From the NCBI GenBank assembly GCA_019057865.1, contig JAHLWP010000045.1:1-27950 (forward strand): a stretch of DNA of 27,950 nt, read 5' to 3'. Under the pieces are notes generated by a model. It saw only the letters and a list, made by a program, of their open reading frames with translations, was not told the origin of the DNA and searched no databases. The translations under genes and the position numbers were made by a program. The stretch comes from Promethearchaeota archaeon. Lineage in GTDB: Archaea > Asgardarchaeota > Lokiarchaeia > Sigyniarchaeales > SOKP01. Positions 6,339 through 27,950 of the stretch are shown here, piece after piece. The first letter of the stretch is position 1; each line of letters begins with the position of its first letter.

Positions 6339-7394
6339 CTATTTAAACTCCTTTTTTACCTCTTCAATGACTTCACCTGTCCGATATAACAATTCATAAG
6401 CTACTTTTGGTGAGTACCAACCTGATAATCCACAGTCAGGACCAACAAATTTAAGACGTTCTCCATAGTGATCAATAGCATCAAGCAGGTTCTTTTTAAT
6501 TCTTTCTTTAGAATCAATTAGACTTATTGTTCCTTCGATAGTCTTTAAATAATCAAATGAAACTCCTGAATCCAACGCCTCTGCCATAATATTATTAACA
6601 TTAGTCCTTGTAATACCTACACGGATAAATTTATCATATTGTTCTAACTCTCTTTTTGGAATTTTATTAGACTTATTTGAAGCATATTCACAGGTAATGA
6701 CATTAAGATTTTCTGTTTGTAAAGGAATTGATGCTAAATTAAGAGTATGAATATGAAATTGACTTTTTACATCAATTCCTTCTAGAGTTTTGTCAAAAAC
6801 TTGTATTAATTCATCATTATCAATATTAATTAAATCAACATAACCAAAAGAAGGTTCATCGACTGAAATGATTGAAGTTTTCATGTATTTTGTATTGATA
6901 ATGGAATTTTTTAAGAAAGAATTTATTGATTTAGCAAAATTTAATGCCATATCTAAATAAATCGTAAAATTTAATTTCTTAATATACATTTCTATAGGTC
7001 CTGTTATACATAATTTAATATTAAGAGGCTCAGCTGTTCTTTCATAGTATTCCACCCCAAATTTATCAAGTACAAACATTTCTGGAATAAAAGCTTTATC
7101 TGGATCTACTAAATTTGGCTCAGTTTCGTAATCTGATAACGGCTTTAAAAATTGTTTGTACATATCCATATGCTGCGGATAATTAACTACTTCTACTCCT
7201 GCTTTTAATTTAAACTGAAATGATTGAAGGAGTGGGTGAATGAAATAATTATAAATTCCTCGATGCTCAAAAATATCCACTTTATTTATTATTGCTTTAT
7301 AGGCAGTCCAATAAAACTGCTTAAACACTTCCTTATCGACATAATTCGGTAATGGAAAACTACCTACATCATCAAACTTAGGAAACTCACTCAA
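6339..7394 (-). CDS. Core (folate-independent) methionine synthase, MetE C-terminal barrel only, MesC-like
   Basis: 351 aa; FDDVGSFPLP, NYPQHMDM, CITGP, SVDEPS; Zn-site candidates HIH (His where MetE has HxC), CEYA and GPDCGL. TTG start behind SD AGGTGG. Confidence 0.8.
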   Translation of the reverse strand: MSEFPKFDDVGSFPLPNYVDKEVFKQFYWTAYKAIINKVDIFEHRGIYNYFIHPLLQSFQFKLKAGVEVVNYPQHMDMYKQFLKPLSDYETEPNLVDPDKAFIPEMFVLDKFGVEYYERTAEPLNIKLCITGPIEMYIKKLNFTIYLDMALNFAKSINSFLKNSIINTKYMKTSIISVDEPSFGYVDLINIDNDELIQVFDKTLEGIDVKSQFHIHTLNLASIPLQTENLNVITCEYASNKSNKIPKRELEQYDKFIRVGITRTNVNNIMAEALDSGVSFDYLKTIEGTISLIDSKERIKKNLLDAIDHYGERLKFVGPDCGLSGWYSPKVAYELLYRTGEVIEEVKKEFK

Positions 7395-7679: not shown

Positions 7680-8807
7680 ATGTTAAAAGCAGAAAAATTG
7701 CCTAAAGAATGCAAAGAATATATGACTCCAATGGAAAGGATAACGGGTCTTATATCACGAAAAAAACTTGATAGAGTTCCGTGCTTTCCATTCGTTTCAG
7801 CAGCAGCAGCTCAGCTTAGACGGTTAAACTATGGAGAATATGCTACAAAACCAGATTTATTCTTAAGATGTCAAATAGAAGCTCAACAGCTTTTTGGGTA
7901 TGATGGTATTACAGCAATGCCAGATCTTTGCGTTGAGGCTCAAGGTTTTGGGGCAAAAATCATATATCCCCCAGATAACGCTGCTTATCCAGATCCTTAT
8001 AATCCAGTTCTTAAATCTCCAGATGATTATAAAAACATAGGTAAATTATTTGATTGGTCCCATGCTGACAGGATGAAAAATCAAATAAGAGTTGTTAAAA
8101 CCATAAAGGAGGAATTACCTGATTTAATGATAGGAGGGATGACAATAGGTCCATTAGGATTAATAAGCCGGCTTCGTAATATTAATGAACTCGTGCGAGA
8201 TTTCACGCATCATAAAGACAAGCTTCATGAAGCACAAGAAATTGTAACCGATATTCAAATAGAATATATTGAAAAACAGATTGAGGCAGGAGCTCGAACA
8301 ATCATGGTTCCTGTCGTTTTAGCCGAGAGAGAACTTATGAGCAAGGAAATGTGGTTAGAATTAGATATGCCCTATCAAAAGAAGATTGCCAATTTTGTGA
8401 GAAAAAAAGGAGCTTTTTATATGGTTCATACTTGTGGTCGAGGTCCCTATTTTGATCCGATAATTGAGCATCTTCGACCAGTTCTCATTCAAAATGCATT
8501 CTTACCTGATGGTATAAAAACTGAACAGGAAATGGTTGAAAAATATGGGAAGAAGTTAATATTTTTAGGATTTTTAAGCGTTTCATTACTTGCATGGGCA
8601 CATCCTTATGAAGTTATAGCGGAATGTAAAAGACAACTTGAAGTTTTCGGAAAGTCACCCGCAGGCTATATTCTTGGAGCGTCTTGTGAATATCCCCCCT
8701 ATGCACCCCTATATAATGCGATGGCTGTTGTTAAAGCAGCTAGGACGTATGGTAAAAATTTTCAAACTGGTAAGGGAGCCAATTATGAAGGAGAAGAAGG
8801 AGGTTAA
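7680..8807 (+). CDS. MtaA/CmuA-family (uroporphyrinogen decarboxylase fold) corrinoid-dependent methyltransferase
   Basis: MTPMERI...DRVPCFP, DLCVEAQGFGA, GP motif, Zn-binding HTCG and C-terminal GASCE; directly followed by a corrinoid protein gene. Confidence 0.85.
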   Translation: MLKAEKLPKECKEYMTPMERITGLISRKKLDRVPCFPFVSAAAAQLRRLNYGEYATKPDLFLRCQIEAQQLFGYDGITAMPDLCVEAQGFGAKIIYPPDNAAYPDPYNPVLKSPDDYKNIGKLFDWSHADRMKNQIRVVKTIKEELPDLMIGGMTIGPLGLISRLRNINELVRDFTHHKDKLHEAQEIVTDIQIEYIEKQIEAGARTIMVPVVLAERELMSKEMWLELDMPYQKKIANFVRKKGAFYMVHTCGRGPYFDPIIEHLRPVLIQNAFLPDGIKTEQEMVEKYGKKLIFLGFLSVSLLAWAHPYEVIAECKRQLEVFGKSPAGYILGASCEYPPYAPLYNAMAVVKAARTYGKNFQTGKGANYEGEEGG

Positions 8808-8812
8808 AAGCT

Positions 8813-9460
8813 ATGTCAGATGATGAAATTTTAAATAAGCTTAAGGAAAGTGTTCTAGATTTTGATGAAGAGACTGCTAAAGAAGCTGCTAAGGAAGCAA
8901 TAAAGGCAGGAATTGACCCATCAAAAGCAATAAAGGAAGGGTTATACCTGGGCTTAAAAGAAATTGCGGATCAATATGAAGACAATTTCTTTATAACAGA
9001 TATGGTTATAGCTTCAGATGTATTCTATGCGGGTGCGAATATTTTAAAACTTAAAATAGATCCAGAAAAAGCTAAGGCAGATAGTAAAGGAACAGCCGTT
9101 ATTGGCGTTGTGAAAGGAGATATTCATGATCTTGGCAAGAACATGATGAAATACCTATTTGAAGCTGAAGGTTTCGAAATTATTGATCTGGGATTTGATG
9201 TTCCTGCTGAGAAATTTGTTGAAGAGGCAGAGAAAAACGATGCGGATCTTATCTTAATTTCTTTAATGCTAAGCTCAAGGTTTCCTGAAATCGGAAAAAT
9301 CGTTAATTTAGCTAAAGAAAAAAAGTTACAAGCAAATGGGGTGAAGATTATGGCTGGTGGGGGACCTGTTTCAGAAAAAATAGCCTATGAACAAGGTGCT
9401 GATGGATGGGCACTCACAGCTCCTTTAACGGTTAAAAAAGCTTTAGATTTGCTTAAATAA
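8813..9460 (+). CDS. Corrinoid (B12-binding) protein, MtaC/MtbC/MttC-like
   Basis: N-terminal cap domain plus GVVKGDIHDLGKN (DxHxxG), DLGFDVP, MAGGGP, GADGW; SD GGAGGT. Confidence 0.92.
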   Translation: MSDDEILNKLKESVLDFDEETAKEAAKEAIKAGIDPSKAIKEGLYLGLKEIADQYEDNFFITDMVIASDVFYAGANILKLKIDPEKAKADSKGTAVIGVVKGDIHDLGKNMMKYLFEAEGFEIIDLGFDVPAEKFVEEAEKNDADLILISLMLSSRFPEIGKIVNLAKEKKLQANGVKIMAGGGPVSEKIAYEQGADGWALTAPLTVKKALDLLK

Positions 9461-9484: not shown

Positions 9485-11323
9485 TTAACAATTATAAAAG
9501 AAGTTAAATAAGAGATTAATCTCTTTTTCTTTTACCTTAAATAAATCGAAAAATAATTTATCAATTCTTACTTGAATTTCTTTTCTATTCCCGCTGGATT
9601 GAACTAATTGTTTTGTTAATTTTTTGATTAAAGATATTTTCTTACAGTCCTTTTCTGATGTAAAGTTTTTTATAAAAGGGATGGGCAAATCATCTTCTAA
9701 TTTTGTCTTACTTCGCTTTATCCGAATATTTTTTGCGTTAAATAAAAAACGGACTAATTTAGAATTCAAATACGCTAACATAAATGTGTAATCAATAGAT
9801 TTCTGGTTAAATCTTGGCCATAAGAAATATGTATCAGATGTAGCAAAATATGAGGACTTTGAATATCCGAAAATATTCTCGTTAGATATATACTTAAAAA
9901 AGATCTTTTTACCCATTTCATAAAAAGGTTCAAGATCAATTAAGGTTTCATTGGAATTATTTTCATTTCTCCGGATAAACGTCCCTCTTCTTGGAAAAAA
10001 ATAATCATTTGGATTCTCTTTTGCATTAACTAAAATATTTCTTAATTCTGTTTTATATTGTTTTAGGTATTGAATTAGATTTGGATATTTTTCTTCAAAA
10101 AATCGATTTCTTTCCTCTATATTCGCACCATGAAATTCATTTTTATTAAAATATATAGCAGACCCGGTATGATCCCCTTCATTATAACTGTAAGGCTTTA
10201 TTGATTTACTTTTATAAATTTTCTTAAGTCTTTCTTTCTCATTGTTTAAAATCTTTACAAATTTATTGTTAATTTTTATATATACATCTCGCTTCTCTAT
10301 TTTAAGATTCTTTCCTTCATTTAAAATAAATAAATTATCTTTGATAAAAATTATACCATTTCGTACAATAAATCTATCCTTAAGATAAGAGATTTTACCA
10401 TTAACGATACAGTTTTTTTCAATATCATCAATAATCTCCTTGATCTCTTCCGGATATAATAAGTTCCAACTTCTATCTGGTTTCAAATCATTATTCGTTA
10501 TAGCAGATCTATATTTTCTTATGCTTCTATTATCATTACCTAATAATACCTTTTTAAAAATCAATGTATTAAAATTTTCATTATTATTACTTGAATTTCC
10601 ATTCTTAGTAATCTGAATTACTTGAATAGGTTTGTTTACGGATCGTTGCTTCTCCAGATCTGTTTTCTTCCTTAATATAAAAATACAATTATGCTGCCCT
10701 TCTGCTCCTTTAAATAAGGTCATATTTGATAAGTCGATGTATTGAAGTAAAAAACATTCTTCTAATATATGGGGTTTTAATAATTTTATCCCTGTCTTTC
10801 TGGATTTTGTTAGCCAGTAATTTGTTGTGATAAATGATAAAATCCCACCCGGTTTAAGTTTTAAAATTCCTAAATGTATAAAATAATAAAATAAATCCAT
10901 ATTACCTACAAAGAATTTTTTACATATAGGAAACTTCTTTATATAATCTTGAAATACCTTTGCATTGTAATTTTGGCCTAAATATGGAGGATTACCAATT
11001 ATTAGATCAAATTTTTCGTTTAGATCGGAGCCTAAAAAGTTTTCAAAATTGAATTTTACCTGAGGATAATTCTTTAAAAGATTCGTCTTCAAACTATTAT
11101 CCATTTCATAAGCAGTTATATCTGAAAAGTTATTTTGAATAAGAGATTTCAGAAATATACCTTCTCCTACAGATGGTTCCAAAACCTTTAAATCTTGATG
11201 AGTTTTATTATCGGTCGTAATAAAATTAGATATATTATTAACCATAAATTTCGCGATATATTTAGGAGTAAATATTTGTCCAATTAAATTATATCCTCTT
11301 TTATTATTATTTTTTAAAACCAT
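9485..11323 (-). CDS. N6-adenine DNA methyltransferase, gamma class (TaqI/Eco57I-like), no adjacent endonuclease
   Basis: GQIFTP (motif X), VLEPSVGEGIFL (motif I), IIGNPPY (motif IV), DLFYYF, LKPGG, and TaqI-C-like LAYLNSKL. Confidence 0.88.
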   Translation of the reverse strand: MVLKNNNKRGYNLIGQIFTPKYIAKFMVNNISNFITTDNKTHQDLKVLEPSVGEGIFLKSLIQNNFSDITAYEMDNSLKTNLLKNYPQVKFNFENFLGSDLNEKFDLIIGNPPYLGQNYNAKVFQDYIKKFPICKKFFVGNMDLFYYFIHLGILKLKPGGILSFITTNYWLTKSRKTGIKLLKPHILEECFLLQYIDLSNMTLFKGAEGQHNCIFILRKKTDLEKQRSVNKPIQVIQITKNGNSSNNNENFNTLIFKKVLLGNDNRSIRKYRSAITNNDLKPDRSWNLLYPEEIKEIIDDIEKNCIVNGKISYLKDRFIVRNGIIFIKDNLFILNEGKNLKIEKRDVYIKINNKFVKILNNEKERLKKIYKSKSIKPYSYNEGDHTGSAIYFNKNEFHGANIEERNRFFEEKYPNLIQYLKQYKTELRNILVNAKENPNDYFFPRRGTFIRRNENNSNETLIDLEPFYEMGKKIFFKYISNENIFGYSKSSYFATSDTYFLWPRFNQKSIDYTFMLAYLNSKLVRFLFNAKNIRIKRSKTKLEDDLPIPFIKNFTSEKDCKKISLIKKLTKQLVQSSGNRKEIQVRIDKLFFDLFKVKEKEINLLFNFFYNC

Positions 11324-11419
11324 CTTACCTTAATATTAGGTTATAAAGTCTAAATATTTGGTGGTTAATTGATTTTAAAAAGCAAAAAAGTAGGAAGAAA
11401 AAAGGATAGATGTATTAGA

Positions 11420-12952
11420 TTAATGATCATGATTATGTTGATGCTCGTGATGCTCCATTTTAATGTTTATCGGTTGTAAATTACCAATTGCCCAACCTGT
11501 CACCTCATTAAGTGAAGGATGAATAACCATTGAGTGATAAATTGGCATAAATGAGCCACCTTCCGGACAAGCTCGGGCAATTTTAGGAATATCAGTTTCT
11601 TCAGTAAATTCTGGTAAAACACAAGTAAATCCTGAATTCATCAAATACACAAATGGTTGAACGAGAATTGCTGCATAAGGCCCAACAACATGTGCTCCTA
11701 AAATTCTATATGATTTATCAACTATTAATTTAACAAATCCATCATCTTCTTCACCAGTTTTAAAACCCATTGCGAAACCCTTTGCTACAGTTGAGTAATT
11801 TTTTACTGCTATATAAATTTCATGTCCTTTTTCTATTGCTTCTGCTTGAGTCATTCCAGCATGACCTATTTGAGGATAAGTAAAAATCGCCCATGGAACT
11901 GCAGAATAATCTACTGAACGTTTTTGATCTTCTGGACCAAAAATATTATTAGTACAAATTTCTGATTCATAATTTGCTTTATGACGAAATTGAAATAGAC
12001 CATTAGCATCACCAATACACCAAATATTCTTTTTATTAGTTTCCAAATACATGTTTGTTTTTATCCAGCCTTTTTCATTTATTTCAACACCAGTGTTTTC
12101 AACTTTTAATAGATCTGCATTTGAACGTCGGCCTGTAGCTACAAGAATTTCTTCTGCTGTAATTTCCACTTCTTGACCTGTCTCCATGTTTCTAGCAATT
12201 ACTATTTTTGTTTTTTTCTTTAATTTTGCTTTAATTGCTTTATGATTAACATAGACTTTCATATATTTCTTAAAATTTTGTTCTAAAAATTGACTGATTT
12301 CTGGTTCTTCAGTCGTCACTAAACGAGGAAGCATCTCAATGATTGATACTTCTGTTCCCATAGCTGAGAAAATATGAGCAAATTCTGCAGCAATTACTCC
12401 TCCTCCAATAATTATAAGACTTTTCCAAGGTTGACTTGGAAATTTTTCACCAAAGAAGCTTTCATTGGTAATATAGCCTACATCTTCTAAACCTTCAACT
12501 GGTGGGATAAATGATCGTGCCCCTGAGGCTATTACGAATTTATCTCCTTTAAATGTGCCAAGAATCTCTTTCCCATCAATAGAATTTACCCGCATCTCAT
12601 ATTCTCCAGTAAATTCGCCTATTCCTTTGTATAATGTGAGATTAGGGACGTGTGATAATCCCTGCTCGATCTGCTTGCTTTCATCGATCTGAGACCACAT
12701 TCTTTTGGATATTAAATCCCAATCAATTCTTTGTACATTGAAATGAATTCCAACTTTACTTGCATGTTGAGCTTCTCGAATCAAGTCTGCTGGGTGTACT
12801 AAAACTTTCGAAGGAATACAACCACGAGTTAAACATGTAGCGCCTAACTTTGTATCTTCTACGAGTGCACATTTCATACCCATTTGGAGACCCACATTCA
12901 AAACATTTAGTCCTGCTCCACTGCCTATAACAACTAAATCATATGTTTCCAT
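11420..12952 (-). CDS. Class-I pyridine nucleotide-disulfide oxidoreductase (dihydrolipoyl dehydrogenase / mycothione reductase-like)
   Basis: VIGSGAG (FAD), GATCLTRGCIPSK redox-active disulfide, IIGGGVIAAE (NAD(P)), ATGRRSN, GD, catalytic HPSLNE; His-rich tail. Confidence 0.88.
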   Translation of the reverse strand: METYDLVVIGSGAGLNVLNVGLQMGMKCALVEDTKLGATCLTRGCIPSKVLVHPADLIREAQHASKVGIHFNVQRIDWDLISKRMWSQIDESKQIEQGLSHVPNLTLYKGIGEFTGEYEMRVNSIDGKEILGTFKGDKFVIASGARSFIPPVEGLEDVGYITNESFFGEKFPSQPWKSLIIIGGGVIAAEFAHIFSAMGTEVSIIEMLPRLVTTEEPEISQFLEQNFKKYMKVYVNHKAIKAKLKKKTKIVIARNMETGQEVEITAEEILVATGRRSNADLLKVENTGVEINEKGWIKTNMYLETNKKNIWCIGDANGLFQFRHKANYESEICTNNIFGPEDQKRSVDYSAVPWAIFTYPQIGHAGMTQAEAIEKGHEIYIAVKNYSTVAKGFAMGFKTGEEDDGFVKLIVDKSYRILGAHVVGPYAAILVQPFVYLMNSGFTCVLPEFTEETDIPKIARACPEGGSFMPIYHSMVIHPSLNEVTGWAIGNLQPINIKMEHHEHQHNHDH

Positions 12953-14462: not shown

Positions 14463-15401
14463 TTAAGATTCTATAATTTCTACGAGTTTTGGAAAGATTC
14501 TGGTGTAATGAACGCTCATTGCATGAATTCCGGAAAGAAGATTCTTTTTTCTTAATTCTGTGATGAATGGTTTGAAAAATCTGTAATTTGCTTGATCATA
14601 AGCTTCTTTTTGCATTTTCTTATCAGTTGAATAATCAGTTTTAATGCCCTTCCATTTAGCTAAAATATTTTTAGGAACGCTCACGCCTGGCACAAATGTA
14701 TCAAAACCTTTAGCCATTCCATAACTCTTCATTGGAAATATTCCTAAGAGAATAGGCACTTTATATTTTTTAATTTCTGTTAAAAATTCAATGGTTCGAT
14801 CTAAGTCATAAACTACTTGAGTTTGTATAAATTCACAACCCGCTTCTGCTTTCCGTCCAATTTTTAAGATTTCTGCTTCCATTGGTTCTGCATTTGGATT
14901 TGCTGCTACGCCCACATGAAGAGTTGGTGGGTGCTCAATTTCGTGACCATTTATCGTTCCTGTATCAACCATTTCTCTCACAAGTTTTACTAACGTTGCA
15001 GAATCTAAATCAAAAACAGGTTTACTTTCAGCCATATCACCTAATGCAGTGTGATCACCAGTAAGAGAAAGGATATTTCTTAATCCTAAGGCATGTCCTC
15101 CCATAATCATACCAGCTATACCCAATTTATTAACATCTCGTACGGTTAATTGCCAAATAACTTCTAAATTTGCTTCTTTCTGAATAATATGCGAAGCAGC
15201 CATACTATTAATTGTTACGATACCAAGAGGACTATCTGTAACGTTTGCAGCAATAACATAAGGGGCCATATCTTTTGCCTCTTGGATTGTATGAGAAAGG
15301 TCGCATGTCTTTTCAGGCTCAAGTTCACCAGTAAGTATGAATTCTCCCTTTGCAAGTGCTTCTCCTAATTTTGAATACACATGGTTTTCTCTTTCTGACA
15401 C
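14463..15401 (-). CDS. metF: Methylenetetrahydrofolate reductase, catalytic subunit (copy 1)
   Basis: GELEP, ANVTDSP, QLTVRD, LTGDH, PVFDLDS, KAEAGCEFIQTQ, PGVSVP. SD GGAGGTGA places the start at GTG 15401 (ORF track gives 15410). Confidence 0.9.
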   Translation of the reverse strand: MSERENHVYSKLGEALAKGEFILTGELEPEKTCDLSHTIQEAKDMAPYVIAANVTDSPLGIVTINSMAASHIIQKEANLEVIWQLTVRDVNKLGIAGMIMGGHALGLRNILSLTGDHTALGDMAESKPVFDLDSATLVKLVREMVDTGTINGHEIEHPPTLHVGVAANPNAEPMEAEILKIGRKAEAGCEFIQTQVVYDLDRTIEFLTEIKKYKVPILLGIFPMKSYGMAKGFDTFVPGVSVPKNILAKWKGIKTDYSTDKKMQKEAYDQANYRFFKPFITELRKKNLLSGIHAMSVHYTRIFPKLVEIIES

Positions 15402-15413
15402 TTTTTTCACCTC

Positions 15414-16085
15414 CTACCTAAAAACAACTTCTTGTTGATGTCCACTTTCAGACCAATCTCTTGCATCACGTAGTTGGCTAAAAAGATCCAACCTGCCGAT
15501 TGTTTTCAGGCGATTAAAAATCAAAACCCAACCGCAATCTTTTTCATAATTACCAACTTCGCATTTTCCATCAACCATACCACCACAAGGACCATTCATG
15601 AGACCTTTAGCGCATGTAGCAACAGGACAGATCCCTCCAGTATAGTTCAAATAGCAATCACCGCAAGCTCTACAGCGCATATAGAACCTACCGATTCTCT
15701 CAGTCATACCAATAAATTTTGTATTATTGGAGACAAGAACTGGTTTTTTTGGATATTTGTTCTCCAGCACCTTTACTATACTCTGAAGCCCCAATCCACA
15801 ACTAAGGGTTAAAATTGCGTCAGATTCTTGAATTTCGTCATCAATTTTGCGAAGATCCTTTTTCATAACTCTATTATCACATACATCCTCAGAAACTATA
15901 ACAGCAGTAACTTCATATCCTTTTTCTATTAAAAGGTCATTCCATTCTTTTGCACCTTCTGTCCCTCCAGTTTGGCAAAGAGCAGCACAAGTGCCACAAC
16001 TTACAATAGCTAATTTCTTGATTTTATAGTTTTCCAACGCTTCGATTACTTCTTCAGTTGGCTTTTTTGTTGTTATAACAACCAT
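15414..16085 (-). CDS. metV: Methylene-THF reductase Fe-S/Zn subunit (copy 1)
   Basis: CGTCAALCQTGG, CD, SCGLG, CRACGDC...GGICP...CAKGLMNGPCGG...CEV...CGW; immediately upstream of metF. Confidence 0.9.
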   Translation of the reverse strand: MVVITTKKPTEEVIEALENYKIKKLAIVSCGTCAALCQTGGTEGAKEWNDLLIEKGYEVTAVIVSEDVCDNRVMKKDLRKIDDEIQESDAILTLSCGLGLQSIVKVLENKYPKKPVLVSNNTKFIGMTERIGRFYMRCRACGDCYLNYTGGICPVATCAKGLMNGPCGGMVDGKCEVGNYEKDCGWVLIFNRLKTIGRLDLFSQLRDARDWSESGHQQEVVFR

Positions 16086-16475: not shown

Positions 16476-17954
16476 TTATAATAATGCTGGTAAAATCCTT
16501 GCTAAAGGAACTGCTAGACCGCCAAGTAATGAACCAATAGAACTGATTTTTTTAATATAATCCTTAATATTTTTTGTAACTTTTACTGTTCTTGTCTTAC
16601 CCTCTATAATTGTACCTTCTGAAGAGAGTAAAAAGATTTGGACCGTTTGTTCTCCTGTTTCTCTTGGTTCTAAGGTTAACCATGTTGTATCCCCATTCTC
16701 TAACATCGTGGACAACACACCAGCAATATCAGTACTTCCAGAAGAAATTAATGGTATAGGTTTATCAGGAATCATAAAAGTACCGCGTCCTTCAACTTCA
16801 ATATCAAGAATCATCTCAGTGGGAACAAATCCAGGTGCCACTACCTTCACAGTATATTTTTTATTTTCAGGGGCGTTATTGTAAAGAAAAACCATTACAT
16901 TTAACTCAGAATTTAGGTAAACAACTTCCTGTGCTGTTGAATCCATATATATTGGATCTTTTGATACCCGTTCAATATTATCAGCTAGCTCTAATTGTAA
17001 TCTGTCTATGATGTTGAAAAATCCAGGATTAAATTTTTTAATGTAATTAAATAATTTATAGATATCTTTAATGGAGAAATACCACGCGCCTTCCATGAAT
17101 ACACCTTTCTCAACATCAAAATTATCTGAATTTACGTCAATAATTTCTCTTAATTCTTGAATTAATTGATCTTCTGATAAAACTTCCTGAAATTTCAGGT
17201 AATAGAGAAATAGTAGCTTTTCAATAGCAAAAGTAATAGGTAATTCTTCCTCTTCTTGCTCTTTTACTTTTTGAATGAAATCGGGAGTTAGAATTTTGTT
17301 TAATTCTGCTAAATATTCATCCCATTTAAGAAATGTAACTGGATCTAAATGGTTTGATAATATTTCTGCGAAAAAATTATCCAAAAATAAGGAATGAGTT
17401 GTTGGCTTGTAAAAATCTTGAAGACCATTTACATCATGAATATTGAGGTTTAAACTACGGATTAATATAGATAATCCTAAACCTACTAATGCAAAACCAG
17501 CAGCAGCAAATCCTATGTCAAGAACATCAAGAGCTAACATAACTACAAATAATATAATTGCAGTAAAACAAATAAGCGAAATAAATTTTAATAAATTTGT
17601 TACTCTTTTAACGCTGCTTGAAAGTAAGTCAAATCCGTCAAGGCTATCTATTGGTCTCCCTCTCTTTCGTTCAAACTTTAATCTCATTTTAAGAGAGCTT
17701 TCAGTAGAACTTGCACCTAGTAATAACATAAAGGAATTGAATGCATAAATGACTATAACTATTAAATAAATTACTTTTAATGTAAAATCAAGTGCTCCAA
17801 CTGCAAAAAACGCAAGAAGCGTAACTATTAACAAGGCTATAGGTAATATGAATAGTAAGAGTTTCCCCACCTTAGAAATGTAACTTATCATTTTACCTTG
17901 AAATCTTTCTTTCTTGATAATTGCCTTTAAATCCCTTTCTAATACTGCTTCCAT
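16476..17954 (-). CDS. Hypothetical membrane protein (about 4 N-terminal TM helices, soluble domain, beta-rich C-domain, hydrophobic tail)
   Basis: 492-aa ORF with hydrophobic segments LLLFILPIALLIVTLLAFFAVG, VIYLIVIVIYAF, FISLICFTAIILFVVMLAL, IGFAAAGFALVGLGLSILI. Confidence 0.75.
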   Translation of the reverse strand: MEAVLERDLKAIIKKERFQGKMISYISKVGKLLLFILPIALLIVTLLAFFAVGALDFTLKVIYLIVIVIYAFNSFMLLLGASSTESSLKMRLKFERKRGRPIDSLDGFDLLSSSVKRVTNLLKFISLICFTAIILFVVMLALDVLDIGFAAAGFALVGLGLSILIRSLNLNIHDVNGLQDFYKPTTHSLFLDNFFAEILSNHLDPVTFLKWDEYLAELNKILTPDFIQKVKEQEEEELPITFAIEKLLFLYYLKFQEVLSEDQLIQELREIIDVNSDNFDVEKGVFMEGAWYFSIKDIYKLFNYIKKFNPGFFNIIDRLQLELADNIERVSKDPIYMDSTAQEVVYLNSELNVMVFLYNNAPENKKYTVKVVAPGFVPTEMILDIEVEGRGTFMIPDKPIPLISSGSTDIAGVLSTMLENGDTTWLTLEPRETGEQTVQIFLLSSEGTIIEGKTRTVKVTKNIKDYIKKISSIGSLLGGLAVPLARILPALL

Positions 17955-21027: not shown

Positions 21028-21489
21028 TTATTTATTAATAATTTCTCTGAGAATTTTTAAGACAACACAAACTCTCTCAACACTTTTCACATCACTTCTA
21101 CCTCGAAAATTTTCTATTAGAGCGTCAAGTTCTGTTATCTCTGGAACATTTACTTTTATTAATATCCCACATTCTCCAGCTAAAAAATATACTTCTTCAC
21201 ATTGAGGTAATAGTTGAGTTTCTCTGATCAATTCTTTTAATTCGGACTGATTCTTAGGTATTAAAGTTATAAACGCATAAATACATCTCTCTTCTTCACG
21301 GCATACTTTTATAGTAAATTTTTCTATCACTCCATCTTCTTGAAGTTTTACAATTCTTTTTCTTACTGTGGATTCTGATAAAGGTATTCCTTCTTCTGCT
21401 AATAACTCTGCTATATCTTTATAAGGTCTTCTTGAATCCTCTATAAGCATTTCTAATATTCTTTTATCTTTCTCATCCAGATTTTTCAT
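21028..21489 (-). CDS. Lrp/AsnC family transcriptional regulator
   Basis: LDEKDKRILEMLIEDSRRPYKDIAE...LSESTVRKRIVKLQEDGVIEKF HTH plus RAM domain. ATG 21489 follows SD GAGGGT (ORF track gives TTG 21495). Confidence 0.92.
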   Translation of the reverse strand: MKNLDEKDKRILEMLIEDSRRPYKDIAELLAEEGIPLSESTVRKRIVKLQEDGVIEKFTIKVCREEERCIYAFITLIPKNQSELKELIRETQLLPQCEEVYFLAGECGILIKVNVPEITELDALIENFRGRSDVKSVERVCVVLKILREIINK

Positions 21490-21599
21490 AATCAACCCTC
21501 TTTAATAATGATTAATTATTTATAATTCCAATACAATTTATAGAAAAATTTATTTTTTAATATAAAAAAATTGTTTCTGTTAAATTTTATCACCAGTTT

Positions 21600-22538
21600 T
21601 CAGAAATCTTTGAGTAAGGGTCCAAATAATCTTTCATATTCTACAGCCATACAATGTATTCCTGCCGCTTTAGTGTTCTTCTTAATCTCCTTAATGAATG
21701 GTTCAAAGTACTCAAGATTTATTTTATCGATTGCTGCATATTTTGCTGGCTTATTTCCTTTATTTTCCTTTTCCGCTGTCTTTAACATTTTAAGTAAATC
21801 TTTTGGAACTGATACACCTGGTATAAATTTATCAAAATACCATGCTATCCCATATGATTTTAAAGGGAAAACACCAAGTAGTACGGGCACATGTAACTGC
21901 TCCAGGTCCTTAAGGAAATCCTTTGCTTCATCAACTTCAAATGCAGTTTGTGTTTGGATAAAATCAATACCTTGTTCTACTTTACGCCCTACCTTAAGAA
22001 TCTCCGGTTCTCTAGGATTGCTATTGGGATTGGCAACACATCCAAAATTCATTTTTATTTTGCCTCCCTCAAGTTCATTTCCTTCATAATCAGTACCTTC
22101 ATCTATCATCATAGAAAGCATCTCTGCAAACTGTGTGCTATCTATATCATACACTGGTCGACCTCGTTTATGATCTCCTAATGCTGTGTGGTCTCCAGTG
22201 AGTGTTAGGATATTTTTTAACCCTAAGACTGCTCCAGCTATTACATCTCCAAAAAGTGCAACCCGATTACGATCCCGAACAGTTACTTGCCATACGGTTT
22301 CCATACCTACTTTTTCTTGAACCAAATAGCTTGGTACTAATGATGACATATAAGCATCGCCTTGGGGTCCATCTGTTACATTTGCTGCGACTATCTTGCC
22401 AGTTTTCTTCATTTCTTCAGCAGAATATAAGATTTCACTTAAATCCAAGATCTTTTTAGGTTCCAACTCACCAGTGACCACAAATTTTCCTTCTTCAATA
22501 GCTTTGCATAAATTACTATATGCTGGTCTTTTTGCCAT
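21600..22538 (-). CDS. metF: Methylenetetrahydrofolate reductase, catalytic subunit (copy 2)
   Basis: GELEP, ANVTDGP, QVTVRDRNR, LTGDH, PVYDIDS, GIDFIQTQ, PGVSVP; SD GGAGG inside the end of metV. Confidence 0.9.
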   Translation of the reverse strand: MAKRPAYSNLCKAIEEGKFVVTGELEPKKILDLSEILYSAEEMKKTGKIVAANVTDGPQGDAYMSSLVPSYLVQEKVGMETVWQVTVRDRNRVALFGDVIAGAVLGLKNILTLTGDHTALGDHKRGRPVYDIDSTQFAEMLSMMIDEGTDYEGNELEGGKIKMNFGCVANPNSNPREPEILKVGRKVEQGIDFIQTQTAFEVDEAKDFLKDLEQLHVPVLLGVFPLKSYGIAWYFDKFIPGVSVPKDLLKMLKTAEKENKGNKPAKYAAIDKINLEYFEPFIKEIKKNTKAAGIHCMAVEYERLFGPLLKDF

Positions 22539-23237
22539 TTATTCTTTCCCCTCCTTTTTTTCCTCTTGTTCATTGGTATATTCCTTATAAATTTCCATAT
22601 ATCCCGGACTTGTCGATAGCCGGAAATCTCTTGGACCTCTATATTTTTTAAACAGATCAAGTCTATTGAATTCTTTCAACCTTTCCCACATTCGAACCCA
22701 TGCACAAGGTATTGTATAACCTCCTACTTCACACATACTATCAACCATACCACCACATGGGCCATTGCTCAAATGTTTTGCACATCCTGCACGAGGACAT
22801 ACACCACCTGTCTCTCCAATTATACAATCTCCACAAGTTTCGCACATTTCAATGAAGTTATTTTCACTATTGTATTGAGTACCTCCGAAGTGACTATTTT
22901 GAGCTGGAAATGTAAGAATACTAGTTAGGATTTTATTCATCATTACAACTCCAAGACCACACGCCAATGAAACAATAGCTTCATATTCTTCTACAAATGG
23001 TCTTACTGTTGTTGCAGCAATTCTATCATCACATTGTCTAAGGACAGTTATGGCTTTCCATTTTAGATCTTTCCCTTCAGTACGTGCTTTTAATTCTAAG
23101 AGTTGACCTAAAACCTTAGCCTCATTAATAGAACGTGGAGGTTGGCTGCATCCATCACATCCAGCTATTAAAATTTTATTATATGGTTTTATCAGTTCGT
23201 ATATTTCATTTATATCTTTTAGTTGTGTAATTATCAT
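22539..23237 (-). CDS. metV: Methylene-THF reductase Fe-S/Zn subunit (copy 2)
   Basis: GCDGCSQPPR, RQCD, ACGLG, CETCGDC...GGVCP...CAKHLSNGPCGG...CEV...CAW; SD AGGAG. Confidence 0.9.
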   Translation of the reverse strand: MIITQLKDINEIYELIKPYNKILIAGCDGCSQPPRSINEAKVLGQLLELKARTEGKDLKWKAITVLRQCDDRIAATTVRPFVEEYEAIVSLACGLGVVMMNKILTSILTFPAQNSHFGGTQYNSENNFIEMCETCGDCIIGETGGVCPRAGCAKHLSNGPCGGMVDSMCEVGGYTIPCAWVRMWERLKEFNRLDLFKKYRGPRDFRLSTSPGYMEIYKEYTNEQEEKKEGKE

Positions 23238-23324
23238 CTTACAAAACTCCTATTTTTTCCATATTTCTTTTTTTTCTTAAATTTCATTCTTTAATTAACT
23301 TAAAAATTTTAAAATTCACATTAA

Positions 23325-24206
23325 TTAGGTTGTTAATTTTTCAATTAACTTAGTTGGTTTCACACTTCTATTTTTCAGATTGAGATCTTCTAATTCTATA
23401 CCTAAAGCAACCGCCATCATTTCGGGTAAATAAAGAACTGGAATATCCAAGTCTTTACCTGTTCTACGTGAGATTATTTTCTCCTTTCTATCATATTGGG
23501 TAACGCAAGCAGGACAAACTGCAATTAAGGCATCAACATCTTCTTCAAGTTCACATAGTTCAGTCATTTTATCTTCAACTAATTTTTCACCTATTTCATC
23601 TTGTAGTCGAGCACAATAACCACAGCACTCAAGTTTATTCGCAAAATCAATTGTTTTTGCACCAAGAGTTTCAAGTATTATATCAATTTTTTCAGGTCTT
23701 TCTGGGTGATCGAATCTCATGATTTTACTTGGCCTAACTAAGTGGCAGCCATAGTGTACAGCAAGATTTAAGTCATCTAATGGTTTAACTACTAAGCTTT
23801 TTATTTTATCAAGCCATTCTGGTTCGGTAAATAATTCAACAAAATGATATACTTTAGTTTTTCCTGTATATCTATGATTTATTTTCTTTAAGATTCCATT
23901 TATTTTTTCTAAGTACTCTCTATCTTCTTCTAATAGGACACTTACTGTTTTAAGCGTTTCATAACAACCAGAACAGATAGTTAGAACATCTAAACCCATT
24001 TTCTCTGCAATGGACAAGTTTCTAGCTCCAAGAGCCATCCATGTGTCAATATTTAATGATTGCATCGCCACAGGCTCTGGACAGCAGCTTACACCTTCCA
24101 TCTCTTTTAACTTTACATCTAAAATGCTAGCAATTTGTCGAAAAGCTTTTTCAAAATGTGGAAGCTTTAAAGGGATTGTACATCCTAAAAACATCGCATA
24201 CTCCAT
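23325..24206 (-). CDS. hdrB: Heterodisulfide reductase subunit B
   Basis: Two CCG domains: LGC...SCCPEP...CSGC and HYGCH...ECCG...CPAC. Confidence 0.93.
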   Translation of the reverse strand: MEYAMFLGCTIPLKLPHFEKAFRQIASILDVKLKEMEGVSCCPEPVAMQSLNIDTWMALGARNLSIAEKMGLDVLTICSGCYETLKTVSVLLEEDREYLEKINGILKKINHRYTGKTKVYHFVELFTEPEWLDKIKSLVVKPLDDLNLAVHYGCHLVRPSKIMRFDHPERPEKIDIILETLGAKTIDFANKLECCGYCARLQDEIGEKLVEDKMTELCELEEDVDALIAVCPACVTQYDRKEKIISRRTGKDLDIPVLYLPEMMAVALGIELEDLNLKNRSVKPTKLIEKLTT

Positions 24207-24208
24207 TG

Positions 24209-24739
24209 TTAATCATCCTCCTTTTCTTTCACGAGATCTCCTAATCCCGTTTCTTTTATAATAAATCTAATTTCATCTAGATTTGGTGGAACAATTTCTG
24301 GTAAGCCCATTCTATTTCTTCTTCTATCGATGTTATCTTTTAATCCTCCTGTGTAAGGAACAACAAAACCATTGTCATATATGACCTGAACCGTACCGGA
24401 ATACTCTTTAGGTATTTTACCCTCTTTAACTGCCATATTTCGCAAAAGCGCTAAAATGAAAGAATAATCCACATTTTTTGGACATCTTTCAGTACATCTA
24501 TGGCATAGAGAACAGGTCCAGATTGCTTGGCTTGATAAGACTTCTTCTTTTAAACCTAAGAGACACGAAGCAACAACTCTGTGAGGTTGCATATCTACGT
24601 ATTCAGTAACTGTGCAACCAGAACTGCACACTCCACATTGAATGCATTTTAACAGAGATTTAGCACCTACTTTTTCGCTTATTTCATAACGAAAATCCCT
24701 ATCTAAATCGCTGGCATTTTTTTTAATCATTTCAACCAT
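24209..24739 (-). CDS. hdrC: Heterodisulfide reductase subunit C
   Basis: CIQCGVCSSGC and WTCSLCHRCTERCP (2x[4Fe-4S]); lies between hdrA and hdrB. Confidence 0.93.
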   Translation of the reverse strand: MVEMIKKNASDLDRDFRYEISEKVGAKSLLKCIQCGVCSSGCTVTEYVDMQPHRVVASCLLGLKEEVLSSQAIWTCSLCHRCTERCPKNVDYSFILALLRNMAVKEGKIPKEYSGTVQVIYDNGFVVPYTGGLKDNIDRRRNRMGLPEIVPPNLDEIRFIIKETGLGDLVKEKEDD

Positions 24740-24741
24740 TT

Positions 24742-27700
24742 TTAAGCACCCTCCTTAGCTTTTTCTTTTTTTAATTCTATCTTGTCTCCTGTTTTAGGTA
24801 AAGGTCCCAATTCTTTTATTTTATTTACAAATTCAGTGACAACTTCAGAAAATCGCTTTCCTTCGCTTGCAGATACCCATTCAAGACGATAACGTCCGGG
24901 ATTAATTCCAACTTTCGCTAAAATCTCATGAATTTCATTATATCGCCTTAACATGTCATAATTACCTTCTAAATAATGGCAATCTCCTATATGACATCCT
25001 CCAACAAATACTCCATCTGCACCCTCCAAAAATGCTTGCAAAATAAAACTTTTTGGAATTCTTCCTGTACACATAACCCTAATAGGCCTGATATTGGTAG
25101 GATATTGGAATCGGCTTACACCACACGTATCAGCACCAGCATAACTACACCAGTTGCATAAAAAGGCAACTATTCTAGGTCTTTCATCAATAAATTCTCC
25201 TTTAAGGGCCTCTGAAATCATCGGATAAATTTGATCATCAGCAAAATGACTCATTGTAATTGCTCCAGCAGGACAAGCTGCTGAACAATCTCCACAACCT
25301 TTACATAATAAAGGATTCGATTGAGACACCAATATATCATGATCGAAATTTACTCCAATTGCACCAAAATTACATACTTCCTCGCATTTTTGACAAGCTA
25401 TACATAATGCTGGATCTACTACAGATACTAAAGGTTCATTCTCAACCTCACCTGAGATAAGTGGTATTAAAGCATGAGCTGCAGCTCCTCTTCCTTGAGA
25501 AATTGCGTCAGCAATTCCTTTTGGACCATGACAGGTTCCTGCAAGATAAATTCCATCAGTAGCGAAATCGACAGGTCTTAATTTAATATGGGCTTCTAAG
25601 AAATAGCCATTTTGATCTCTAGCACACTTTATTAATTCACCAAGTCGTTTAGTATCATATGGTACTAAGGGTGTAGATAGAACAACTTTATCTGCCTTAA
25701 TAGTAAGATCTATTTGAGTTAGAATATCGTTAACATTAACTTTAAGCTTGCCATTAGCAATATCTACTGTTGGATATTCATTAAATCTTATATAATTGAT
25801 ACTTTCGCGTGCTTTCCAATAATAAAGTTCCTCATCAGTTCCCACTCTAATATCTCGATACAAAACATAAATATTAGAATTTGGATAGTTTTCTTTTACA
25901 TATAATGCATGTCTAATAGATTCAGAACAACAAATTAACGAGCAATAAGTAAATCCATTACCTCCTTCTGGCTGTCTTGACCCTACACAATGAATAAAAA
26001 CAAGGGTTTCACCATCTTTTAACTCATTATTCTTAAGTTTTTCAGACAGTTCCAGTTGAGTTATTACATTTTCATTTTCTCCATAATGATACCAACCTTC
26101 AGGTTTATACTCGTAGGCACCTGTAGCAGTAATGATAACCCCAACATTCAAATTAATCTCTTTATTTTCTGCATTATTTTTAACTTTAATTTTAAAATCA
26201 CCAATTGATCCCTTAACATCCACCACTTCGGATTGTAAATACGTTGTAATGTTTTTCAACTCGTTATATTCCCTTATTTTTTCCTCTAAAAATTGCTTTG
26301 AATCAATTCTATCAAAATTAATCTTATAAATTAGATTCAATTGGCCGCCCAATTCGTCAGATTTTTCCACAAGATGGACTTTAAATCCTTTTACGGCTAT
26401 TTCCATGGCCGCACTCATTCCAGAAATTCCACCACCTATAATCAAGGCTTCGGGAACAACATCGCCTCTAATTTTGAATTCAGATGTTTGCTTTCTAACT
26501 CGAGCTATACCCATCCTGATTAAATCTTTTGCCTTATCAGTTGCTTTTGGATTATCATTCATATGCACCCATGAATCTAATTCTCGGATACTTACAAAAT
26601 TAAAGAGATACTCATTTAAACCTGCTTCTCTTATAGTTTTTTGGAATAAAGGTTCGTGAGTTCTTGGGGTGCATGCTGCAACGACGACTCTATTTAAATC
26701 AAGTTCTTCAATTTTTTCTTTAATAATGTCTTGAGTTAATTGTGAACAACTATACTTATTTTCCATAGCATATACTACGTTTGGAAGAGTCTTAGCATAA
26801 TCTACCAAGGTTGGTACATCCATATAACCAGCAATATTGATACCACATCTACAAATAAACACACCAATTCTAGGTTCTTCATCTGGTCTAATATCTTTCA
26901 ATGGTGGAAGTTCAACTTTTTGTTCCTCTTCACTCATTGGAATGGCGTGCGTAGCAGCAAGAGCCGCTGAACCTCCTGCTTTTGCCACAGAATTAGCTAT
27001 ATCATCAGGTGATTGACATGAGCCAGAGACATATATTCCTTCACGCGTGGAACGTAGATCTTCTGTAGAATCTTTAGTTTTAAAGAATCCAAGCTCATTT
27101 TGCTCAATCCCTAAGATATTTGCTAATTTCTCAGCATCTTTTCGAGGGGTCACTGCATTTGCGAGCACTACAAGATCAAATTCACTTACCTCGACTTCAC
27201 CAGTATCGAGGTTTGCATGTTTTACATAAAGATTATGATTTTCTGGATTTTCACGGATATCTCCGGGAATACCTCTGTAATATATAAGACCATATTCATC
27301 TTTAGCCCTCTCAATAAATTCTTCTTGATTCTTTCCTACTACTCTTATGTCATTAAAAAAGATAGTAACACTTGTTTCAGGTGCATGTTCTCTGGTAACT
27401 ACCCCTTCTTTAGTTTGATACATACAACAAAACTTGGAACAATAGGCACAAAGATCTTCATTTCGGGAGCCAACACAACTTACAAATCCAATATTATGCG
27501 CATGTTCATTATCTGAAGGCCGTAAGAGCGCTCCTCCCGTAGGACCTGAGGCACTTAATAAACGCTCATATTGCATAGCTGTAACAACATTGGGATATTC
27601 TCCATAGTGATATCTTACTAAAACTGAAGGATCTAATTGATCATAACCTGTAGCCACAATAATCGAAGCAAAATTATATTCCACGACCTCATCTTTATCA

Positions 27701-27950
27701 TCCCAATTAATTGCTCCTGCTTCACATTCTTTCTCGCAAAGTTGGCAAGCTTCTTTAGTGAGATAAAGACATTTCTCAGCATCAATAACGGCTTTCCTCG
27801 GAACAGCTTGTGGAAATGGAATGTATATAGCAGTTCTATTCCCCATTCCCTCCTCAAACTCGGAAGGTATCTTTTTCATGGGACACTTTTCAGAGCAAGC
27901 TTCACACCCAGTACATTTTTCCCAATCTACATACCTTGCTTTTTTCAATA
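24742..27950 (-). CDS. hdrA: Large HdrA with tandem HdrA modules fused to a C-terminal MvhD domain (5' end outside the window)
   Basis: Module 1 remainder: CTGCEACSEKCP, ATG, CVGSR...YCSKFCC. Module 2 from about 26880: IGVFICRCG, AACTP, IGGGISG, CVGSR...YCSLICC. Then 2x[4Fe-4S] CIACQKCEEVC and CKGCGDCSAACP, then MvhD (about 25180-24742) FLCNWCSYAGAD, MCTGR, GCHIGDCHY. Confidence 0.95.
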   Translation of the reverse strand, partial: LKKARYVDWEKCTGCEACSEKCPMKKIPSEFEEGMGNRTAIYIPFPQAVPRKAVIDAEKCLYLTKEACQLCEKECEAGAINWDDKDEVVEYNFASIIVATGYDQLDPSVLVRYHYGEYPNVVTAMQYERLLSASGPTGGALLRPSDNEHAHNIGFVSCVGSRNEDLCAYCSKFCCMYQTKEGVVTREHAPETSVTIFFNDIRVVGKNQEEFIERAKDEYGLIYYRGIPGDIRENPENHNLYVKHANLDTGEVEVSEFDLVVLANAVTPRKDAEKLANILGIEQNELGFFKTKDSTEDLRSTREGIYVSGSCQSPDDIANSVAKAGGSAALAATHAIPMSEEEQKVELPPLKDIRPDEEPRIGVFICRCGINIAGYMDVPTLVDYAKTLPNVVYAMENKYSCSQLTQDIIKEKIEELDLNRVVVAACTPRTHEPLFQKTIREAGLNEYLFNFVSIRELDSWVHMNDNPKATDKAKDLIRMGIARVRKQTSEFKIRGDVVPEALIIGGGISGMSAAMEIAVKGFKVHLVEKSDELGGQLNLIYKINFDRIDSKQFLEEKIREYNELKNITTYLQSEVVDVKGSIGDFKIKVKNNAENKEINLNVGVIITATGAYEYKPEGWYHYGENENVITQLELSEKLKNNELKDGETLVFIHCVGSRQPEGGNGFTYCSLICCSESIRHALYVKENYPNSNIYVLYRDIRVGTDEELYYWKARESINYIRFNEYPTVDIANGKLKVNVNDILTQIDLTIKADKVVLSTPLVPYDTKRLGELIKCARDQNGYFLEAHIKLRPVDFATDGIYLAGTCHGPKGIADAISQGRGAAAHALIPLISGEVENEPLVSVVDPALCIACQKCEEVCNFGAIGVNFDHDILVSQSNPLLCKGCGDCSAACPAGAITMSHFADDQIYPMISEALKGEFIDERPRIVAFLCNWCSYAGADTCGVSRFQYPTNIRPIRVMCTGRIPKSFILQAFLEGADGVFVGGCHIGDCHYLEGNYDMLRRYNEIHEILAKVGINPGRYRLEWVSASEGKRFSEVVTEFVNKIKELGPLPKTGDKIELKKEKAKEGA

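Follow-up and report, generated by a model that had tools for sequence, protein, structure and literature searches.

A putative archaeal operon joining a doubled, MvhD-fused HdrA to HdrCB and MetVF: a candidate Hdr-linked methylene reductase in the Wood-Ljungdahl pathway of a Lokiarchaeon

What purpose is served in an archaeon by a heterodisulfide reductase (Hdr) module whose genes lead directly into those for a methylene-pterin reductase? The question is raised by the minus-strand series hdrA::mvhD, hdrC, hdrB, metV, metF and lrp on contig JAHLWP010000045.1 of a Promethearchaeota archaeon (assembly GCA_019057865.1; 4.26 Mb, 29% G+C, 99.7% complete with 5.2% contamination). The whole contig, 27,950 bp and here called C29, is the window, and coordinates refer to it unless another contig is named. 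The closest homologues of its MetF carry the label Promethearchaeota (former Lokiarchaeota). The answer favoured, with a probability of about one half, is that the six genes encode a soluble Hdr-MetVF oxidoreductase acting at the methylene/methyl-pterin step of the Lokiarchaeon's Wood-Ljungdahl pathway. The combination of metVF with a doubled, MvhD-fused Hdr module suggests that one carbon-reduction step of that pathway is wired to electron bifurcation, and the locus is, in this sense, an archaeal version of a scheme put forward already for acetogenic bacteria and for archaea that oxidise alkanes.

The series begins at the contig end with the C29 part of hdrA (24742..27948), which runs off that end and encodes residues 98-1165 of a 1165-residue doubled HdrA fused to MvhD (HdrA2 being the best NCBIfam match, at 1003 bits). 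It continues with hdrC (24209..24739; 176 residues, 2x[4Fe-4S]; TIGR03290, 9e-30, and Fer4_8/Fer4_17) and hdrB (23325..24206; 293 residues, two CCG motifs; TIGR03288, 1e-81, and alignable full length with HdrB of structure 8RVU). An AT-rich spacer of 87 bp (23238..23324), with T4/T5 runs and a GGAG ribosome-binding site at its end, separates these from metV (22539..23237; 232 residues, 12 conserved cysteines, C-terminal PF12225), metF (21600..22538; 312 residues with the methylenetetrahydrofolate reductase fold, PF02219) and, recognized by a profile match, a gene for a Lrp/AsnC-family regulator (21028..21495). The successive gaps are 2, 2, 87, 0 and 104 bp. A preliminary description of the window, made from its letters, had listed co-oriented genes with gaps of 2, 2, 87 and 0 bp followed by a Lrp regulator, and had MvhD fused to a doubled HdrA; open reading frame coordinates and profile matches agree with the first statement, the presence of two HdrA modules and a PF02662 domain bears out the second, and all six gene assignments stand in Pfam and NCBIfam profile searches.

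The 5′ end of hdrA, the recovery of which that description had put forward as a check, lies on contig C67, whose last 55 bases are the reverse complement of the last 55 of C29, the 55-mer being unique within the assembly. The joined gene starts at C67:5999, has its first 97 codons on C67 (L001:5999-6340) and encodes 1165 residues; the join is validated by an uninterrupted orthologue in one relative, which aligns with the joined HdrA over residues 1-1165 at 86% identity. Farther 5′ on C67 come a spacer of about 550 bp, AT-rich, a divergent gene for a small GTPase of the Ras/Arf type that is typical for Asgard archaea, and genes for phosphoenolpyruvate carboxykinase and a thermosome subunit. Two possibilities that had been raised, an NADH-binding GltD-like insert in HdrA and mvhAG or fdh genes upstream, are ruled out, the one by Pfam and NCBIfam scans of both parts (no GltD or NAD(P)H-binding insert, with HdrA and MvhD domains covering the whole sequence) and the other by the gene content of C67, where the divergent small GTPase gene stands instead, so that the cluster begins with hdrA. 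By unique 55-nucleotide end overlaps (at C29 positions 1 and 27950) the contigs form a chain of C33, C67, reverse C29 and reverse C12, and the locus is therefore extendable on both sides without new sequencing.

The anatomy of HdrA was derived from alignment to a solved methanogen HdrA (5ODC), together with a cysteine map and self-alignment. Module 1 (approximately residues 1-440, its remainder on C29 at 26920..27948 aligning with 5ODC HdrA residues 235-517) is a thioredoxin-reductase-like flavin adenine dinucleotide (FAD) domain, and lacks the N-terminal iron-sulphur domain since it opens directly at the GxGxxG motif. Its FPTxDCSIC motif, encoded in the C67 part, supplies C57 and C60 as equivalents of Cys194 and Cys197; it retains the inserted 2x[4Fe-4S] ferredoxin domain (C109-C172) and holds E225 and K277, the Glu/Lys pair of bifurcating flavins (E356/K409 of M. 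thermolithotrophicus HdrA). Module 2 (approximately residues 453-1010; 25210..26883, aligning with 5ODC HdrA residues 2-234 and 512-647) has the N-terminal iron-sulphur domain (C463, C465, C498 and C523), followed by a FAD domain with no inserted ferredoxin, in which Gln replaces Cys197 and Ser/Arg replace the Glu/Lys pair, and it ends in a C-terminal 2x[4Fe-4S] ferredoxin domain. MvhD comes next, at about residues 1020-1147 (MvhD/FlpD domain at 24805..25173; PF02662, 4e-52; MvhD chains of 8RVU and 5ODC at about 1e-50). Features that go with bifurcation are present between the two modules, the inserted ferredoxin domain and C57/C60 in module 1 and the N-terminal domain in module 2. Complementary domain loss in fused HdrA, seen also in that of Moorella, has been read as a self-heterodimer (Chadwick et al., PMC9012536), and the pattern of the two-module HdrA, as predicted from its sequence, is the one so interpreted. 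In a full-length alignment to 8RVU, none of the ten cysteines of the two CCG motifs of HdrB is lost. Doubled hdrA genes recur elsewhere in the genome: seven or more additional paralogues, with identities of 42-48% across some 900-1000 residues, are spread over contigs C31, C3, C37, C87, C14, C23 and C72 (six in tandem on C31), and several of them have a separate or fused mvhD.

The linkage of the Hdr genes to metVF is widely retained. A scan of species-representative genomes yielded 80 Promethearchaeota loci with MetF 72-96% identical, a set overlapping a first set of 20 in which metVF abuts Hdr genes every time, in two arrangements. In all 80 related genomes metVF lies directly 3′ of either hdrB (type A, the order of C29; 63) or hdrA::mvhD (type B; 17), and none has it without Hdr; lrp is 3′ of metF in 76 of the 80, and metV and metF, with a gap of 0 bp here, are separated in 74 relatives by -8 to 4 bp, usually by 0-1. 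Type B reads hdrC-hdrB-hdrA(431 residues)-hdrA(555 residues)-mvhD(256 residues)-hdrA::mvhD(1163 residues)-metV-metF-lrp, so that split and fused forms of the doubled HdrA occur in one cluster with a single hdrCB pair (L008 1-8500 and 16 other loci). A third order (type C), metV-metF-hdrA::mvhD-hdrC(-hdrB), is found on a metagenome contig that has a cofilin gene (L102) and in another Asgard family (G064), where the full series is metV-metF-hdrA::mvhD-hdrC-hdrB-mer-mer with both mer genes canonical. Farther afield, a Bathyarchaeota contig has two metVF pairs beside mtd and ftr, one pair being preceded by a polyferredoxin::MvhD fusion, and in a bacterial Wood-Ljungdahl cluster mvhD is directly 5′ of metV. 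MvhD, adjoining in several arrangements, these last two included, is in consequence the recurrent neighbour of MetV. Adjacency that persists through different gene orders is a stronger argument than the counts. The gene linkage, the archaeal analogue of the Moorella and Sporomusa cluster, is thus real, and synteny, named in the preliminary description as a means of checking it, holds in 80 of 80 related genomes, with a further order in other Asgard lineages.

Modelling of the complex, proposed at the same time, also lends support to a contact between MetV and HdrA/MvhD. HdrA residues 936-1165 (the C-terminal ferredoxin domain plus MvhD) were modelled with MetV, each as an orthologue alignment, and the docking score was 0.66, the best of three controls giving 0.00. 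In calibration the mark applied is passed by 58 of 80 solved complexes and, among 110 mismatched pairs, by 2, counts that are only rough here because alignments made for this analysis were used. Three docking runs share at least 90% of contacts, with partner pLDDT (predicted local distance difference test) of at least 87, and MetV contributes to the modelled interface its N-terminal region with the Cys motifs (residues 8-10 and 28-55), which meets the cluster loops of the ferredoxin domain and MvhD. No solved relative of MetV was found, and the pass is therefore not recall of a known MetV complex. The model supports binding of MetV at the end of HdrA that holds the C-terminal ferredoxin domain and MvhD, though binding is not demonstrated thereby. 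As a separate observation, residue 31 of MetV (23144-23146) gives GCDGCS here where the aligned Hdr-linked MetV1 orthologues of related Promethearchaeota have GCDGCC, and this Cys-to-Ser change adjoins two invariant cysteines.

Which pterin would such an enzyme act on? A bacterial-type tetrahydrofolate (THF) methyl branch had been envisaged, a picture to which the gene content runs counter. Profile search finds Ftr, Mch, Mtd and CdhC in the genome and, at its 99.7% completeness, no Fhs (formyl-THF synthetase); a lone FolD is present among housekeeping genes, and the genes around it do not point to a pathway. In a quick maximum-likelihood tree MetF1 (the product of the Hdr-linked metF), MetF2 (that of a second copy in the window) and Bathyarchaeota proteins fall in an archaeal clade of 22 rows, with a Shimodaira-Hasegawa-like approximate likelihood ratio test (SH-aLRT) value of 100, set off by a branch of 0.84 from 42 mostly bacterial rows that include a bacterial hdrA/mvhD-linked MetF; the search was a quick one, and the Moorella, Sporomusa, ANME-1 (anaerobic methanotrophic archaea) and Syntrophoarchaeum sequences are outside the tree. 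The nearest non-Loki MetF cluster is that of Bathyarchaeota/Hecatellales, at 48% identity, and elsewhere in archaea metVF adjoins cdhC or the tetrahydromethanopterin (H4MPT) pathway genes mer, mtd or ftr. Recent transfer of a whole bacterial operon, a candidate explanation for the locus, is ruled out by the archaeal MetF clade together with the doubled hdrA paralogues of the genome. From this context, H4MPT is most likely the pterin.

The distribution of Mer, the coenzyme F420-dependent enzyme of the same step, is also pertinent. No Mer above the TIGR03555 cut-off was found in this genome, in 41 genomes of the host's order or in 25 of its family. Within the order, 33 of the 41 genomes have Mch, and archaeal-type MetF is present in 30 of these Mch-positive genomes as against 2 of the 8 Mch-negative ones. 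Among 151 Asgard genomes, canonical Mer occurs in 48 (none of them in the host's family), this type of MetF in 59 and both in 24, with the two within 6 kb of each other in 10 of the 24. Four other Asgard families have metVF 0.3-6 kb from canonical mer (L114, which is G064:C12:48000-66000, and L113, L111 and L112), and G047 has a tight metV-metF-mer cluster. Strict complementarity of Mer and MetF, tried as a rule, holds in the host's order and fails across the phylum, given the genomes with both. In several genomes of the same genus Mer-like F420-type genes lie directly beside the stand-alone second metVF pair, metVF2 (G017:C31:23437-25545; G011:C87:2880-5578; G016:C78:8185-11912; G007:C26:28167-33710); in the present genome they are on C54. 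As far as gene content indicates, MetVF is a companion of the H4MPT methyl branch and, in the host's family, its only recognisable methylene reductase, and in that family it has duplicated, with one copy tied to Hdr.

What the analysis establishes is the gene content, the conservation of domains and ligands, the persistent linkage and the setting in the genome. From the modelling we infer that the proteins would form a complex; the identity of the pterin and of the disulfide, and which way electrons flow, are inferred as well. MetF, a flavin-containing TIM (triose-phosphate isomerase) barrel, would interconvert methylene- and methyl-pterin, with MetVF occupying the seat held in methanogens by the MvhAG hydrogenase and with the single two-module HdrA polypeptide serving as its own asymmetric dimer. 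Electrons would pass from MetF to MetV, MvhD, the C-terminal ferredoxin domain and so to the FAD of module 1, which bears the bifurcation signature and would split or join them between ferredoxin and a disulfide/dithiol couple at HdrBC, one branch reaching ferredoxin by way of the N-terminal cluster and the inserted ferredoxin domain, and the other reaching the disulfide by way of HdrC and HdrB. Such a complex would be reversible and near equilibrium: in the reducing direction reduced ferredoxin and thiols would reduce methylene-H4MPT, and in the oxidising direction the oxidation of methyl-H4MPT would be bifurcated to ferredoxin and disulfide. The midpoint potentials (after Thauer and co-workers) of ferredoxin, about -500 mV, and heterodisulfide, about -140 mV, have an average of about -320 mV, and that of the methylene/methyl-H4MPT couple is about -310 mV. 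For the methylene/methyl-THF couple the value is -200 mV (PMC9430772). As the ferredoxin/heterodisulfide average matches the H4MPT couple and not the THF one, the complex could run either way. A more specific proposal, tentative and held with more doubt than belief, is that methylene/methyl-H4MPT would itself be the couple of middle potential with which a bifurcating Hdr works, poised between ferredoxin on one side and an Asgard disulfide on the other, with MetVF in the hydrogenase's seat on MvhD.

The wiring could in principle be the other way about. In the model proposed for Moorella thermoacetica (PMC9430772, PMC6085437), MetVF would be the high-potential end acceptor, reached through HdrC and HdrB, MvhD the entry port and ferredoxin the low-potential product; the donor at MvhD would be encoded separately, for instance as a MvhAG-type hydrogenase or a F420H2-oxidising subunit, and the substrate would then more likely be methylene-THF or a folate-like pterin. 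The type A order hdrA-hdrC-hdrB-metV-metF does parallel that electron path, but mvhD, not hdrB, is the gene next to metV in loci of types B and C as well as in those of Bathyarchaeota and bacteria, and the docking model sets MetV on the MvhD/C-terminal ferredoxin face. Pull-downs from Sporomusa ovata point both ways, as MetF bound HdrB and yet a Strep-MetV bait recovered HdrA, not HdrB (PMC9430772). Genes for group-3 [NiFe] hydrogenase, which might furnish the donor, are present elsewhere in the genome (C54 and C72), though those loci have their own adjoining hdr genes, and against the presence of FolD stand the lack of a detected Fhs and the H4MPT-pathway genes that are neighbours of metVF. 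A further count against such wiring is that H2-driven bifurcation with H4MPT as the acceptor would be approximately isoenergetic. On balance it is unlikely.

The arrangement might also reflect neighbours that form no obligate complex, with MetVF a stand-alone ferredoxin-dependent reductase, like the MetFV of the Clostridium ljungdahlii type, the Hdr module serving some other reaction, and the shared locus owed to common regulation or history only. Orthologous type A loci have 46-117 bp between hdrB and metV, with a T5-T8 run right after the hdrB stop codon, as might be expected on that explanation; the metVF2 pair and the metVF pairs of three families (f18, f23 and f12) stand alone, and many other hdrA paralogues in the genome are without metVF. 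Set against this, adjacency holds in 80 of 80 genomes and in at least three different gene orders, the type B spacers before metV are of 18-40 bp with a ribosome-binding site only, and the predicted docking passes its controls. Independence of the two modules is therefore judged quite improbable. Still less credible is a mainly anabolic role, in which methyl-pterin would go to methionine and S-adenosylmethionine synthesis under the Lrp-type regulator and not to catabolic carbon flow: the frequency of that regulator 3′ of metF (76 of 80), a core-MetE-like methionine synthase with a MtaA-like methyltransferase and a corrinoid protein 12-15 kb off on the same contig, and the view of Methanosarcinaceae MetFV as anabolic (PMC9012536) all accord with it, but for an anabolic step of low flux a bifurcating Hdr module would be costly, the genome has in its stand-alone metVF2 pair another enzyme for such a task, and the neighbours in other lineages are the catabolic Wood-Ljungdahl genes mer, mtd, ftr and cdhC.

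Several considerations weigh against the favoured reading of a Hdr-MetVF oxidoreductase at the H4MPT level. The relatives are kin and their counts are therefore not independent. The modelling covered the MetV-MvhD contact, to which a contact of MetV with HdrB is the alternative. The conserved oligo-T run and A/T-rich spacer could terminate or attenuate transcription, with a restart before metV; a sigma-70 promoter and terminator scan gave no more sites than shuffled sequence, the sigma-70 model being one that is not applicable to archaea. Neither ComA (coenzyme M synthesis) nor a match to the DsrC family was found in the genome, other routes to coenzyme M being outside that search, so that neither of the known heterodisulfide substrates, CoM-S-S-CoB and DsrC, was recognised for HdrB. 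With FolD present there is probably a pool of the folate type. C54 encodes two divergent Mer-like F420-type oxidoreductases, which reach 165 and 139 bits where the cut-offs are 349 and 276 and could still do Mer's job. Lastly, the co-occurrence of Mer and MetF in 24 genomes means that MetVF is not simply a substitute for Mer.

The acetogen counterpart, HdrCBA-MvhD-MetVF of Moorella thermoacetica, was reportedly described by Mock et al. in 2014. That Hdr-type methylene-THF reductase, present also in Sporomusa ovata (PMC9430772), brings the same six functions together in one cluster, and shares with the archaeal set the conserved cysteine ligands of HdrB and an HdrA enlarged by a second thioredoxin-reductase-like module, the module order of the reductase-linked HdrA of S. 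ovata, as described, being the same. Differences are that module 1 here keeps the ferredoxin insert reported absent in S. ovata (PMC9430772), that MvhD is fused to HdrA and separate there, and that the GltD/NAD(P)H insert of Moorella HdrA has no counterpart. In addition, MetF belongs to a separate archaeal clade, in a tree that the Moorella and Sporomusa sequences are outside, and the host has the H4MPT pathway and not that of THF, no Fhs having been found. With MvhADG-HdrABC of hydrogenotrophic methanogens (5ODC, 8RVU) the HdrA domains, HdrB and HdrC align full length at E values of 1e-64 to 1e-178, and the cluster ligands, the bifurcation residues of module 1 and MvhD are conserved; in place of the hydrogenase subunits, which are lacking here, MetVF is proposed, the HdrA homodimer is replaced by a single fused pseudo-dimer with complementary domain losses, and ComA was not found. 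The best NCBIfam match, HdrA2B2C2 of Methanosarcina acetivorans (NF040770), likewise has HdrA fused to MvhD, but its score, 1003, is below the family cut-off of 1100, HdrA is doubled in the Lokiarchaeon, and the donor there is F420H2, the linked catalytic module here being MetVF. HdrA2B2C2 is said, by Yan et al. in 2017, to bifurcate to ferredoxin and heterodisulfide without hydrogenase.

Closest in concept are ANME-1 and 'Ca. Syntrophoarchaeum', for both of which MetF has been proposed as a substitute for Mer; the latter has MetFV-HdrA-MvhD clusters, and the ANME-1-type MetF clade already includes Asgard sequences (PMC9012536). As there, the Lokiarchaeon has archaeal-type MetF with MetV and lacks canonical Mer in the presence of other H4MPT enzymes, and the hypothesis of MetF feeding an HdrA paralogue is the same, with the proviso that the ANME-1 and Syntrophoarchaeum sequences are not in the present MetF tree. 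What differs is that the cluster is complete (HdrA::MvhD, HdrC and HdrB) and kept across a whole Lokiarchaeial family, that the two HdrA modules are fused in the opposite order to those of ANME HdrA3/HdrA4, and that other Asgard families have metVF next to canonical mer, so that substitution is not the whole story. The Hdr-type MetVF reductase, the idea of MetF in place of Mer, the Syntrophoarchaeum MetFV-HdrA-MvhD clusters and fused HdrA pseudo-dimers are all already published. In the open-access literature, subscription papers on Asgard metabolism being beyond the scope, no description was found of the complete family-wide Lokiarchaeial operon, of an HdrA::MvhD that keeps the ferredoxin insert and has no NADH module, or of metVF-mer adjacency in other Asgard families.

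Other genes of one-carbon metabolism in the window have a looser relation to the operon. The second, stand-alone pair metV2-metF2 (14463..16085, minus strand) is a paralogue outside the Hdr operon, with MetF 44% and MetV 35% identical to the first copy, and in several relatives it is loosely linked to the first metVF, at 7-39 kb on the same contig. Upstream of metV2 by 390 bp is a gene for a multi-pass membrane protein of 492 residues (16476-17954, minus strand; no Pfam or NCBIfam match), and the order membrane protein-metV2-metF2 recurs in 16-21 of the 80 related loci. The core-MetE-like methionine synthase gene (6339..7394, minus strand; 239 bits to PRK06052, no Pfam match) is divergent from those for a MtaA/CmuA-family methyltransferase (7680-8807; profile match) and a corrinoid protein (8813-9460), a trio of which corrinoid-dependent methionine synthesis is the simplest candidate reading. 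The preliminary description had seen in all this an island for the routing of methyl groups: the second metVF, the corrinoid methyltransferase and the core methionine synthase are indeed there, but such linkage as was found conserved is loose and involves metVF2 only, the loci of relatives having been viewed, for the trio, with flanks of 10 kb. Between the two groups of one-carbon genes (9485-12952) lie genes for an Eco57I-type restriction-modification methylase (612 residues) and a dihydrolipoyl-dehydrogenase-like flavoprotein disulfide reductase (510 residues, 516 bits), the latter a possible handler of a thiol/disulfide pool.

Electron balance and energy conservation in the Asgard Wood-Ljungdahl pathway bear on hydrogen and syntrophy models of the origin of eukaryotes, and are still argued from gene lists in which metF stands for a 'folate branch' and hdr for an 'unknown heterodisulfide'. 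Recent Asgard papers assign metF to the folate branch (PMC12222021, PMC11291895). The locus joins metF and hdr in a conserved, putative operon and points to H4MPT over folate, and the presence of metVF beside canonical mer in other Asgard families corrects a simple view of MetF as a mere replacement for Mer. With its fused HdrA::MvhD and no NADH module, it is also a compact system in which to address a question of long standing, namely where the electrons bifurcated by the Hdr-type methylene reductase go. If the tentative proposal of methylene/methyl-H4MPT as the mid-potential partner of Hdr were true, the step run in methanogens by F420-dependent Mer would be an energy-coupling site in Lokiarchaeia, and in the cluster that contains mer (metVF-hdrA::mvhD-hdrCB-mer-mer) hydride could even be carried by the pterin back and forth between the Hdr module and F420H2.

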